From positions 1,257-65,256 of the forward strand of contig CAYOHP010000027.1 in the NCBI GenBank assembly GCA_964403795.1: a DNA stretch of 64,000 nucleotides, given 5' to 3'. The notes under the pieces were generated by a model, which did no database searches, was not told the origin of the DNA, and worked only from the letters and a program-made list of their open reading frames with translations. Positions 57,701 through 59,094 of this stretch are shown piece after piece. This DNA is from an uncultured bacterium (lineage in GTDB: Bacteria > Muiribacteriota > UBA6191 > CAZXTJ01 > CAYOHP01). Each line of letters begins with the position of its first letter. The stretch's first letter is position 1. The translations under genes were made by a program, and so were the position numbers.

Positions 57701-57814
57701 AGCGAGGAGAGTGAGGAAGAGTGCCGCGATGGCCCCGGCCCGCACCGACCGGGTAGCGGCGGTGCTTCCTGCCGTTCCGGCAAGCCGAGCGAGCGGCCCG
57801 TGCGACAGGGTCAC
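54734..57814 (-). CDS. Outer-membrane Omp85/BamA-TamA-type protein with degenerate peptidase-MA-like and propeller N-terminal domains
   Basis: Signal peptide; GGHDPSPDA / GVSPDRL propeller blades; LGGSEDLRG, F.D.G.AW, GVGIELR, terminal F. Confidence 0.7.
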   Translation of the reverse strand: MTLSHGPLARLAGTAGSTAATRSVRAGAIAALFLTLLASAEAQVRGLTPGPQVWRWYQGHSEHVVTYVSVRRQDPPTSRDALDRLGLARDATSEAEAAFREFQARTGSDLRGVALLVTDQLPPDYRDYRYLPSTGGITVHLAPDLGEVAGSRLPARAWRRRRIREQVAGAFLWHHLNRVRPRSPFRRLLLRRLRPAWMLVGLAAWMAGEAEPHEEALLRASLESAPPRSLSDLVMFESLDAYRKQVAFVQARSFAGWLAERHGLAPCLRFLELIRRHPTRTSRAFRGAFGSPLDSQRKEWASSVRSKAREFSQATGDPAPLRLLARLPGWSGGHDPSPDATHLALVVNERVPRNRIPDLMLLPRFGPADLIHVGGPPVVAPPVWIDGERLLALHQEISPFGQPRQQVRIHPIRQAMPRNAVGPLEAIGQAMSFGRSVLLRTVGGTGNVLISDHDLTGLGVSPDRLWLSITRGHGPESELLLFRLGDLLARPGGSEGSEAASPVRRVPLPAGSVHRWTENHGSILISAVDSQGQGEIWRLDPETAGFERLVSRPRPIRSLFGTRERIFFTEHGADLIESLNEFNPRTGSTRTLFRDPRAILGPRLVEDGHRVVYTRFEPGGLSMVEREMPEPPTATLPGSKGPNRGPEPAPDATDLAGDRSLAEEARAAPADPEVPSYPGLERYRPRFNRRRDRLVVDDDALGLTMEWRDAFNQRSISAALWRGDAPHQGNWEVLYYDNRNRPSWFAGAFDTDDEDLLGIFPLSDVSSGVSQRGGLTGIAWQTTPTQSWSLSAEAKTLEYDPGVFAGRLPAFDPDVHILRLRWILNELSLSPDQGLSPYGDRLLSLSLARSAFGGDARYWEVLGDFRTYVPLTNGADSFATRFAFGFRNPEVDPAPIPLDFTLGGSEDLRGIRDDALTGEKFMIATLEYRRLLSRSSGVRRGLDRLGLGFLSRPFRFDQVYASVFFDMGTAWDDGFGWGRMERGVGIELRSQGFLTAFRPASIRLGFAHGFGPLGVNDIYLATSTFF

Positions 57815-59094
57815 TGGTCCTGCGCCATCCGGATCCGGAAGGCCTCTTCGTGGAACGGGAGGTCCTCTCCCCGGGCCAGATCGGCGATCACCGCGTGCAT
57901 CTCCCTCACCTTGGCCGGGTTGTAGTGGACCAGACTCGAGGTCTTCATGAAATCGCGCACCCCCAGGGGGCCGCGATGGGCGACCGCTCCGCTTGCCGGG
58001 ATGAGGTTGGAGGCGGAGGCGAAGAAGTGCTCGATCCCTGCGGGGGTGTTGCGCCCCAGGTAGACGACTCCGGCGTGCGGCACCGAGGCGAGCAGGTCGA
58101 GGGGTTGGGAGACGAAGAGCGAGAGGTGCTTGGGAGGGTGCTTGCGGAGGAGCCCCAGGGCTTCCTCCAGGCTCCGGGTCAGGACCACCACCGCCAGTTC
58201 ATCGAGGCGCCTCCGGGCCTGGGCTCCCTGGGGAGAAGTCCGGGAAAGGCGCTCCACCTCCTCTTCGAGCTCGTTGGCGAGCACCAGGCTGGGCGTGACC
58301 ACCGCCAACCGGGTGAGGTCTGGGTCCTCGGAGAGGGCGAAGAGATCCACGGCCAATACCCTCGCATCGGCATCGATGTCGGCCAGGATGGCGGCCTCGT
58401 TGGAATCGGTGATGACCTTGCACGCCACCCGGTCGCCTGCCGCGAGAGCCGCCAGCTTGTGTTCGTCGCCGCCGTTGGAGATGACCAGCTCGACCTTGGG
58501 AATGGTCGGCGTTCCCTCCGCGAAGGCGAGGAGGGCGGAGACCGGGTCGAGGTCGAAGATGGCCTTGGCGCCCCAGTCCCAGGCTAGGGCGACCGCGAAC
58601 GGATCGGGTGCCTGGCCGCCCGGTCGGGCGGGGAAGACGACGTAGAGGTCCTCGACTCCGGCCACGTAGGCAGGCGCCAGGTACATCATCAGGGAGGTCG
58701 GGCTGAACCTCCACTCCTTCGAGAACACGAAGGCGGCGCTTCCCAGCGGAGCCACACACTGGCCATACATCTCCCCGGCGGGTCCGGTCGTGAACCAGGA
58801 GTTGGGTCGCTGGCGTTCGTGGAAGTCGAGGATGGAGTCCCGGGCCCTCCGGAGGGCCGTCCGGTAGTCGGGATCGAGCCCGTCGAAGACCCTGGCGGCG
58901 GCAGCTTCGTCCATGGTCCACGAGGGGATCCTCCCCTCGTGGGCAAGGGCGGCGTCGCCGCGCTCACGGATCTCCTTGTGCCGATGGAGCACGTCTGCCA
59001 GTCCGGACCCGGCATCCAGCCCTGTCCCGGGATGTCCGAGGAGGCGTCGGGCCTCGTCCGCGAAGTTGGCTCGCCAGGATTCAAGAAGCCGCAT
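57811..59094 (-). CDS. Histidinol dehydrogenase homologue with degenerate active site
   Basis: Collinear with HisD over its full length (RERGDAAL, FHERQ, PKV, HAG.VYLG..TP, LGV.DFMK) but the Zn/NAD motifs are substituted. Confidence 0.85.
   Translation of the reverse strand: MRLLESWRANFADEARRLLGHPGTGLDAGSGLADVLHRHKEIRERGDAALAHEGRIPSWTMDEAAAARVFDGLDPDYRTALRRARDSILDFHERQRPNSWFTTGPAGEMYGQCVAPLGSAAFVFSKEWRFSPTSLMMYLAPAYVAGVEDLYVVFPARPGGQAPDPFAVALAWDWGAKAIFDLDPVSALLAFAEGTPTIPKVELVISNGGDEHKLAALAAGDRVACKVITDSNEAAILADIDADARVLAVDLFALSEDPDLTRLAVVTPSLVLANELEEEVERLSRTSPQGAQARRRLDELAVVVLTRSLEEALGLLRKHPPKHLSLFVSQPLDLLASVPHAGVVYLGRNTPAGIEHFFASASNLIPASGAVAHRGPLGVRDFMKTSSLVHYNPAKVREMHAVIADLARGEDLPFHEEAFRIRMAQDQ

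Follow-up and report, generated by a model that had tools for sequence, protein, structure and literature searches.

What becomes of a histidinol dehydrogenase that keeps its fold and gives up the residues with which it binds metal and cofactor? The question is raised by a gene at positions 57811-59094 on the minus strand of a 64,000-nucleotide stretch of DNA (hereafter the window; contig CAYOHP010000027.1 of assembly GCA_964403795.1, from an uncultured bacterium), which we call hisD*, and its product HisD*. A first-pass annotation of the window had taken HisD* for a maintained, non-catalytic relative of the histidinol dehydrogenase HisD, translationally coupled to the neighbouring DNA polymerase gene dnaE and related in role to histidine metabolism. 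As set out below, HisD* is unfit as a nicotinamide adenine dinucleotide (NAD)- and Zn-dependent histidinol dehydrogenase and is conserved as a protein of its own kind, for which we tentatively propose a function in binding histidine or a related metabolite.

The open reading frame (ORF) is intact, running over 427 codons from an ATG at 59094 to a TGA at 57813-57811. Its G+C content at the three codon positions is 0.71, 0.47 and 0.86 in a window of 70% G+C, and its codon usage is normal, with a cosine of 0.96 to the neighbouring genes. Residues 40-423 match positions 20-411 of the 411-position Pfam profile PF00815 (Histidinol_dh) with 214.7 bits against a cut-off of 27, an end-to-end correspondence that agrees with the collinearity to HisD initially noted by eye. 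An AlphaFold2 monomer model has a mean predicted local distance difference test score (pLDDT) of 93 and a predicted template modelling (TM) score of 0.89, and its best 32 Foldseek matches in the PDB are all HisD or the HisD paralog HpsN. TM-scores range from 0.76 to 0.86 over solved HisD structures (0.86 to 4g09 and 0.83 to 1kae, besides 5vlb and 8xsq) and from about 0.78 to 0.80 for HpsN; the four-domain HisD fold is thus predicted to be intact, as had been expected. The gene is genuine, and its organism turns up repeatedly. A 1.9-kb segment at hisD* was assembled with 0 differences from wastewater (depth 46) and bioreactor (depth 23) metagenomes of separate studies, and such identity between independent assemblies means that hisD* is not an assembly artefact. 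A 3-kb probe around the locus (57500-60500) has its counterpart in sludge, sediment and bioreactor samples from at least 11 studies. The one metatranscriptome consulted, from an organism-bearing sample, holds no contig over the locus and is uninformative.

HisD is an obligate domain-swapped dimer, the partner subunit of which donates E414* and H419* to the substrate/Zn pocket (E. coli numbering; asterisks on residues mark this donation) (PMC5585171). In the Medicago histidinol dehydrogenase, Zn is bound by the equivalents of H262, D360 and H419*, joined by Q259 upon substrate binding; the imidazole is hydrogen-bonded by E414*, and the substrate oxygen contacts H327 and the carbonyl group of H367 (PMC5585171). 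NAD is held by the equivalents of Y130, G133/G134, T171 (S135 in E. coli), Q188, N211, Y253 (F213 in E. coli), S237 and E326, as well as by an F-D pair near residue 58 (PMC5585171). Mechanistically, Glu326 activates water and His327 acts as the base (PMC11382572).

We derived residue equivalences from a HMMER alignment to solved HisD structures, including that of the E. coli enzyme (1k75). Three of the four Zn-ligand positions are changed in HisD*, namely Q259 to L254, H262 to D257 and D360 to H356, and only H419* is kept, as H415*. In addition, E326 is replaced by K322, H367 by N363 and S237 by N232. Nearly all of the NAD contacts listed above have been exchanged (Y130, G133, G134, S135/T171, Q188, N211, F/Y213, S237 and E326), and the F-D adenine/ribose motif is missing. 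The motif replacements read at first pass are all present: AAFVFSKE, DPVSA, SNGG, TDSNE, DLFALSED, PKHL, EHF and SASNLIP. Along the minus strand, the former NAD pyrophosphate loop (58711-58734), aligned to 1k75, reads AFVFSKEW (A121-W128) for the GLYIPGGS of E. coli (G128-S135), and the former Zn motif (58324-58347; residues 250-257) reads DLFALSED for DLLSQAEH, which bears out the predicted loss of the ligands Gln259 and His262. The former catalytic pair E326-H327 has become K322-H323 (58126-58131). In the loop E355-H356...N363 (58006-58032), IEHFFASASN stands for GDYxxGxNH, and pLDDT of the model dips here to 72-84. The segment E410...H415 (57850-57867; EDLPFH) retains the equivalents of E414* and H419*. 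Two statements of the first-pass annotation, which gave no strand, need qualifying. The equivalents of His327 and His419 are indeed kept (H323 and H415), but they are not the only ones, as E414 (E410), E261 (E256) and E238 (E233) are retained too; and although H356 occupies the position of Asp360, an invariant Glu or Asp lies one residue earlier, at the equivalent of G359.

The position of H262 is the one at which alignments differ. A large MAFFT run places a gap opposite this residue, whereas HMMER and L-INS-i give an ungapped register that needs no indel and is the more parsimonious version. No register supplies a His at the H262 site, and we rejected an alignment artefact.

The importance of the exchanged residues is evident from HpsN, in which they are kept. 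The HpsN mutant D352A is inactive, and E318A and H319A lower activity 580-fold and 240-fold, respectively (PMC11382572). Given that single mutations of the equivalent Glu, His and Asp are crippling in the paralog, we regard histidinol oxidation by HisD* as practically excluded; having lost the NAD site together with the Zn/catalytic set, HisD* is almost certainly not a histidinol dehydrogenase.

Are these substitutions peculiar to one sequence, or do they define a group? A word-indexed search of 5.8 billion proteins returned nine relatives at 58-69% identity and one at 36%, with canonical HisDs at or below 32%. An exhaustive profile search of 1.84 billion cluster representatives set three clusters apart at 812, 552 and 443 bits, canonical HisDs reaching at most 258 bits. 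With the results of another profile search, of look-ups that started from DnaE homologs and of locus scans added, the set came to 23 distinct sequences in four subclades, which share 32-47% identity between subclades, 32-90% overall and only 25-32% with any canonical HisD. They are monophyletic in 47 of 50 neighbour-joining bootstraps, and their ORFs, of about 425-440 amino acids, are intact down to 32% identity.

Four changes are fixed in this clade: H262 is Asp, E326 is Lys or Arg, G359 is Glu or Asp and S135 is Trp (W128 in the window) in 23/23 sequences. E261 and H419 are likewise kept throughout; the equivalents of the partner-donated E414* and H419* are conserved in sequence (Glu/Asp and His, 23/23), the structure model being a monomer. 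S237 and H367 have each turned into Asn in 21/23 sequences (with Thr also seen at H367), and the Q259 position is mostly hydrophobic (Leu, Ala or Val in 22, Arg in one). The D360 position holds His, Asn, Gln or Thr, and the H327 position His in 17 sequences, Tyr in five and Asn in one. In the pyrophosphate loop, Y130 has been replaced by Val, Leu, Cys or Ile and G133 by Arg or Lys, and G134 is variable. We also considered a swapped Zn site, in which H262 to Asp and D360 to His would make up a 2-His-1-Asp set, and dropped it as a general feature, because position 356 is His in subclade A only and Asn, Gln or Thr outside it.

As a yardstick we used 65 reference columns, each at least 90% conserved across 119 canonical HisDs. 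HisD* retains 28 of them, 7 are re-specified to a different residue that is itself conserved (G to A121, D to K226, H to D257, A to P320, E to K322, G to S360 and H to N363) and the remaining 30 vary. The varying columns include the PGG, GGAQA and GPGN loops of the NAD site, the replacements of which differ between subclades and thus point to relaxed constraint. By this pattern, the cofactor site is relaxed and the substrate/metal pocket re-specified. Within the clade, 52 positions are at least 95% conserved, many of them with new residues.

Nei-Gojobori ratios of nonsynonymous to synonymous substitution (dN/dS) within subclade A are 0.13-0.45 for HisD*, and the genome pairs in question give 0.14-0.36 when dnaE is compared and 0.36-0.46 when hutI is; as synonymous sites are partly saturated and GC-biased, this like-for-like comparison outweighs the absolute values. 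HisD* is therefore very probably functional and maintained by purifying selection, as the first-pass annotation had supposed. Judged by its sequence, it may be called a pseudoenzyme in the operational sense, that is, an enzyme homolog under purifying selection that is devoid of residues essential to the ancestral reaction.

The opposite view, that HisD* is a decaying hisD relic preserved only through the start and stop overlaps with its neighbours, would account for the variable NAD loops; overlaps on both sides could hinder deletion, and a relative described below (P0088) illustrates that further decay can occur. However, intact ORFs across so wide a range of identities, dN/dS values like those of dnaE and hutI, conservation at newly acquired residues and the confident AlphaFold2 model all speak against decay, a reading that is largely refuted and to which we assign next to no probability.

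Just as hard to credit is the proposal that HisD* remains a histidinol dehydrogenase by means of alternative residues or another cofactor. Family membership is clear, and subclades B and C score 251-260 bits on the NCBIfam hisD equivalog model TIGR00069, above its cut-off of 243.8; the window protein (202.3 bits) and two further members, P0004 (213.9) and the one of locus L010 (232.1), fall below it. Yet canonical HisD reaches 537 bits on the same model, and the charge at E326 is reversed on top of the loss of nearly all NAD contacts and three of four Zn ligands. Members above the cut-off are encoded in loci L008/L015 (8257-9546) and L012 (11507-12796) or represented by P0010, P0077 and P0229, the last of which bears the NCBI title 'MAG: histidinol dehydrogenase [Candidatus Wallbacteria bacterium]' (MAG, metagenome-assembled genome). 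The hisD labels of subclades B and C are likely a systematic misannotation; as these proteins pass the hisD cut-off and carry that name, metabolic reconstructions of Wallbacteria-like MAGs may wrongly credit the organisms with the last step of histidine synthesis.

A further-degenerated relative, P0088 (L009 9364-10656), is placed as sister to or inside the extended clade (50/50 bootstraps). It shares the motifs MKxxETW, LPEVPAIFA and PPKxL with HisD* and has lost the NAD loops as well; D257 is Leu, H323 is Glu, H415 is Cys and E355 is lost. Unlike hisD*, its gene is not next to dnaE: a dnaE fragment (L009 2-1021, minus strand) lies about 8 kb off on the opposite strand, with LysM, SH3, NHL and barnase/barstar genes in between. 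Outside the HisD* clade, other HisD-family cluster representatives (P0117, P0125, P0155, P0166, P0185, P0076, P0094 and P0080) also go without one to several Zn/catalytic residues. Example patterns at eight key sites are QDQYDTES and HGEHGSDR, in which the second letter corresponds to E. coli D263 owing to an alignment gap at H262. The HisD family seems to hold several uncharacterised divergent branches.

What might the remodelled pocket bind? The partner-donated E414* and H419* are kept, and the metal ligands and the catalytic Glu have been swapped for residues of opposite or complementary charge, a pattern that would follow if Zn-mediated binding of an amino-imidazole substrate had given way to salt bridges with the ammonium and carboxylate groups of histidine or of a related metabolite of histidine utilisation (Hut). 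We suggest that the pocket may have shifted from metal-mediated binding to direct charge pairing. The ammonium group of the ligand would be paired with D257, in the place of H262, and with E/D355; its carboxylate would be paired with K322, in the place of E326, and with K226; and the imidazole would still be held by H415*/E410*. In such an arrangement the ligand of HisD* could be L-histidine or a different imidazole-carboxylate from the Hut pathway, bound with neither NAD nor redox chemistry, and HisD* might serve the functions encoded with it as a ligand-binding sensor, a regulatory protein or a carrier.

These functions are given by the gene neighbourhood. Directly upstream of hisD* lies dnaE (59081-62695, minus strand), which encodes a DNA polymerase III alpha subunit of 1204 amino acids (PRK05673, 1364 bits, above the cut-off; Pfam PHP, DNA_pol3_alpha, finger and HHH_6). 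Directly upstream of dnaE, and overlapping its start by 4 nucleotides, lies the imidazolonepropionase gene hutI (62692-63972, minus strand; TIGR01224, 473.7 bits against a cut-off of 298). On the other side, downstream of hisD*, comes a gene of the Omp85 superfamily with about 1000 codons (54734-57814, minus strand; Pfam Omp85, 36 bits), and its candidate GTG start overlaps the hisD* stop (GTGA). The minus strand of the window thus reads hutI, dnaE, hisD*, Omp85-like, with junction overlaps of 4, 14 and 4 nucleotides. Within the 14-nucleotide overlap of the dnaE stop and the hisD* start (59081-59094) and just ahead of it, the coupling to dnaE that had been claimed finds its basis: a Shine-Dalgarno-like hexamer, GAGGAA (59099-59104, minus strand), is embedded in dnaE, and its GAGG core ends 6 nucleotides before the hisD* ATG, as would suit a ribosome-binding site. 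HisD* is presumably translated, as a rule, by coupling to dnaE.

The arrangement is not confined to the window. dnaE is found directly upstream of hisD* in 15/15 distinct loci, including subclades with 32-40% HisD* and about 50% DnaE identity, and the two genes overlap by 4 or 14 nucleotides in 9/11 loci with called genes. hutI precedes dnaE in 12/12 loci that reach far enough, so its vicinity, also remarked upon at first pass, is general. A bona fide hutU equivalog (TIGR01228, 899 bits) precedes hutI in six loci, though not in subclade B; neither hutH nor hutG was seen in any of the clusters inspected. In Candidatus Wallbacteria and their uncultured relatives, a hutU-hutI-dnaE-hisD* cluster has become fixed, with hisD* in fourth place, and it is unlikely that a histidine-pathway paralog has come to lie beside histidine-catabolic genes by chance. 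Histidine-biosynthesis genes are found nowhere in the 64-kb window. The first-pass annotation had called for a search of the genome for a second, canonical hisD; over the 64-kb window and all fetched loci, tblastn and a Pfam search of 29 further ORFs disclosed none.

On the strength of the pocket chemistry and the fixed linkage to hutI and hutU, we consider a non-redox, ligand-binding role in histidine catabolism. A HisD paralog that is kept by selection, is no dehydrogenase and serves in ligand binding is the best explanation overall, albeit one that we hold tentatively; the more specific tie to histidine or Hut metabolites is to be taken with, if anything, slightly greater reserve. A histidine/histidinol sensor, or a part comparable to that of HisZ, as first suggested, is plausible by analogy, in view of the same pocket chemistry and hut linkage. 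Several observations weigh against this explanation. The ligand is deduced from residue chemistry, and the geometry of D257, E355, K322, K226 and H415* is putative. Positions 356 (His, Asn, Gln or Thr) and 323 (His, Tyr or Asn) vary within the clade, which weakens any precise model of the pocket. HisD* contains no DNA-binding, RNA-binding or signalling domain that could relay the signal of a sensor. Moreover, as hutH and hutG are not part of the cluster and subclade B also lacks hutU there, the hut link amounts to hutI alone in part of the lineage. Finally, dnaE clusters elsewhere, as in E. coli and in a Firmicutes MAG, hold functionally unrelated genes, and overlapping genes can freeze a gene order without any shared function.

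The old active site is not simply relaxed, and residues newly fixed in it (D257, K322, E/D355, K226, N363 and W128) suit a remodelled metal site or new chemistry as well as they suit ligand binding; they could instead be those of a real enzyme. HisD* might catalyse a new, NAD-independent reaction of a compound derived from histidine, perhaps the hutH or hutG step, for which the cluster has no gene. The Zn site would then have been remodelled into a carboxylate-rich site for a harder metal, for instance Mn2+ or Fe2+, formed by D257, E/D355, H415* and perhaps E256, with K322/H323 as acid and base. The invariant new polar residues at former active-site positions (D257, K/R322, E/D355, K226, N363 and N232) would fit this idea, as would the combination of an Asp at the H262 position, an invariant acidic residue beside the lost D360 and a retained H419. 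The loop following PGG, which separates substrates in this family, has adopted a third conserved form, x-W-[RKQ]-F-[SA], and hutH and hutG would at least be available as vacancies. But non-redox catalysis is without precedent in the HisD fold, residues differ within the clade at positions 356 and 323, the metal site is putative with a geometry drawn from sequence, and a cluster devoid of hutH and hutG does not tell what the remaining genome encodes. We regard both the new chemistry and the remodelled metal site as unlikely.

The constancy of the dnaE junction invites yet another interpretation, in which the hut genes are bystanders and HisD* is an accessory of the replicative polymerase. Translational coupling would keep its synthesis in step with that of DnaE, which it would bind as a dimeric scaffold or regulator, maybe at the PHP domain. 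The PHP domain of DnaE is homologous to PHP-type histidinol phosphatases. The adjacency in 15/15 loci, across subclades with 32-47% HisD* identity and mostly with 4- or 14-nucleotide overlaps, and the GAGG site within dnaE are in line with such a partnership, as is the presence of holA, the gene for the Pol III delta subunit, within one or two genes of the cluster. It may also be telling that the one relative detached from dnaE, P0088 of L009, is the one that has lost D257, H323 and H415, and the domain-swapped HisD dimer (PMC5585171) has a shape suited to bridging two partners. Against this, DnaE of the lineage has no specific insertion or docking module beyond a variable Pro/Arg-rich C-terminal tail, dnaE is tightly packed with unrelated metabolic genes in other bacteria, and the conservation of HisD* appears to centre on the former small-molecule pocket rather than on an obvious new surface. 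In E. coli, the cluster runs bamA...rnhB-dnaE-accA; in the Firmicutes MAG, which holds the nearest outgroup dnaE, accD/accA come after this gene, and neither hut genes nor hisD adjoin it. The gene order hints weakly at a role with DnaE, but we think an accessory function improbable. More improbable still is the stronger version, in which HisD* would be a lineage-specific subunit of the replicative polymerase, a dimeric, ligand-binding HisD-fold protein that translational coupling would supply one for one with DnaE, that might dock on its PHP domain and that would in this way make replication or proofreading depend on how much histidine or Hut metabolite is present.

Some features of DnaE were noted alongside. 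In subclade A, its C-terminus (window 59081-59230, minus strand; P0344-P0346) consists of the Pro/Arg-rich low-complexity tail followed by a conserved acidic GPPxPEELDEAS, and in other subclades DnaE ends differently, with tails that are basic or rich in Pro. Part of the conservation in subclade A may stem from the ribosome-binding site within dnaE and from the 14-nucleotide overlap with hisD*. In the PHP domain (window 62600-62695 and 62240-62290, minus strand), subclade A differs from Taq DnaE (2hpi) in that the Asp of SLLDG is Gln and the Cys of SGCL is Leu, two residues that we presume to bind the PHP metals; outside subclade A, the SLLDG Asp is preserved. A proofreading-type PHP site may thus be partly degenerate in subclade A only. 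The state of this site was rejected as a correlate of HisD*, as the two presumed ligands differ in subclade A alone and the pattern does not track HisD*.

A conserved, overlapping cluster of catabolic and replication genes is noteworthy in a candidate phylum without a cultured member. Should the arrangement be functional, amino-acid status and replication may be linked; otherwise, it illustrates strikingly how overlaps can freeze a gene order.

Other genes around the cluster complete the picture. The Omp85-like gene lies 3' of hisD* in two subclades, A and B (it was seen in L001, L005, L006, L007, L013, L019 and L020), and is absent from this place in Wallbacteria proper. Its product matches Omp85 at the C-terminus only, leaving about 800 residues without a Pfam hit, and may be an unusual BamA/TamA-type protein of the lineage. 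A divergent holA occurs one or two genes before hutU in several loci: L001 (898-1989, minus strand; TIGR01128, 110 bits), and L003 (1254-2372), L007 (829-1971) and L010 (3710-4876), where it is identified only by position, a faint Pfam match or weak tblastn similarity. It adjoins a gene for a T2SSE/MshE-type ATPase just upstream of hutU/hutI, and two replisome genes thus bracket the hut genes. dnaE is split in L007 (1063 and 96 amino acids; 6495-9686 and 9714-10004), and in L013 both hutI and the T2SSE gene come in two pieces (6810-8001 and 2438-4165); these are probably assembly frameshift errors and not biology. The window further holds a phage-integrase-family gene near its start, a single tRNA (Rfam, 50 bits), at least three Ser/Thr protein kinases, a cNMP-binding patatin, FloA, LptF/G, a sigma-54 activator and a GAF-GGDEF protein; coordinates given for these features are 617-1882 and 35005-35088 (both minus strand), 1896-3287, 19405-21624 and 47544-49229.

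With respect to its origin, the window DnaE groups at more than 1200 bits only with metagenome proteins and MAGs labelled Candidatus Wallbacteria (= Candidatus Walliibacteriota), and the HisD* lineage comes from wastewater, sludge and groundwater. A pattern-limited locus scan with a broad alignment detected HisD* in five of 185,579 GTDB species, three groundwater Wallbacteria MAGs and two other MAGs, and further in 1 metagenome locus. The same scan with the subclade-A alignment, the peptide patterns of which are too specific, gave nothing in GTDB genomes or Joint Genome Institute (JGI) metagenomes. The DnaE grouping and the five GTDB species therefore mark the hisD* cluster as a trait of one rare lineage. 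Judged by title and abstract, none of the papers found to mention Wallbacteria deals with the HisD* locus.

How, then, does HisD* compare with the systems already known? Histidinol dehydrogenase itself (HisD; EC 1.1.1.23; PF00815; TIGR00069) is homologous to HisD* over the full length and shares its four-domain fold, 28 of the 65 highly conserved columns, the equivalents of H327, E414*, H419*, E261 and E238 and many structural Gly, Pro and Ala residues. In contrast to HisD, HisD* has Leu, Ala or Val for Q259, Asp for H262, His, Asn, Gln or Thr for D360, Lys or Arg for E326, Asn for H367, Asn for S237 and replaced NAD contacts, and it is encoded in the hutU-hutI-dnaE cluster instead of a his operon.

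HpsN, the (R)-2,3-dihydroxypropane-1-sulfonate (DHPS)/sulfopropanediol 3-dehydrogenase (PDB 8v35, 9cp7 and 8wwe), is likewise a HisD paralog of the same fold, the substrate of which has been changed by way of an altered post-PGG loop. Having kept Gln248/His251/Asp352/His411* and Glu318/His319 and still binding NAD, this enzyme has been proven to be a four-electron dehydrogenase that works with Zn and NAD (PMC11382572). HisD*, on the other hand, keeps a single Zn ligand and nearly no NAD contacts. The post-PGG loop tells the substrates apart, HisD having G-S-A-P-L and HpsN G-R-Y-A/S-H, with a sulfonate/Zn-binding His126 (PMC11382572). HisD* lacks the G-R-Y-A/S-H motif; its corresponding stretch is E-W-R-F-S in the window protein and conforms to the third form given above in most of the clade.

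HisZ, to which the first-pass annotation had likened HisD*, is reportedly a catalytically inactive paralog of histidyl-tRNA synthetase (HisRS) that serves as regulatory subunit of the ATP-phosphoribosyltransferase HisG. The likeness is one of functional analogy only, HisZ being an enzyme paralog of histidine metabolism in which catalysis has been lost; the folds are unrelated, and partner and function are proven for HisZ.

Literature searches for an inactive or re-purposed HisD ('HisD pseudoenzyme', 'HisD-like') found no paper, and the only characterised branches of the family met with in PDB and literature searches are HisD and HpsN, both Zn/NAD dehydrogenases. HisD* is an undescribed HisD subfamily. 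It would be the third branch of the family, one that has given up the cofactor and the metal set while keeping the fold and part of the pocket, and hence a clean natural case of a dehydrogenase pocket being re-specified.

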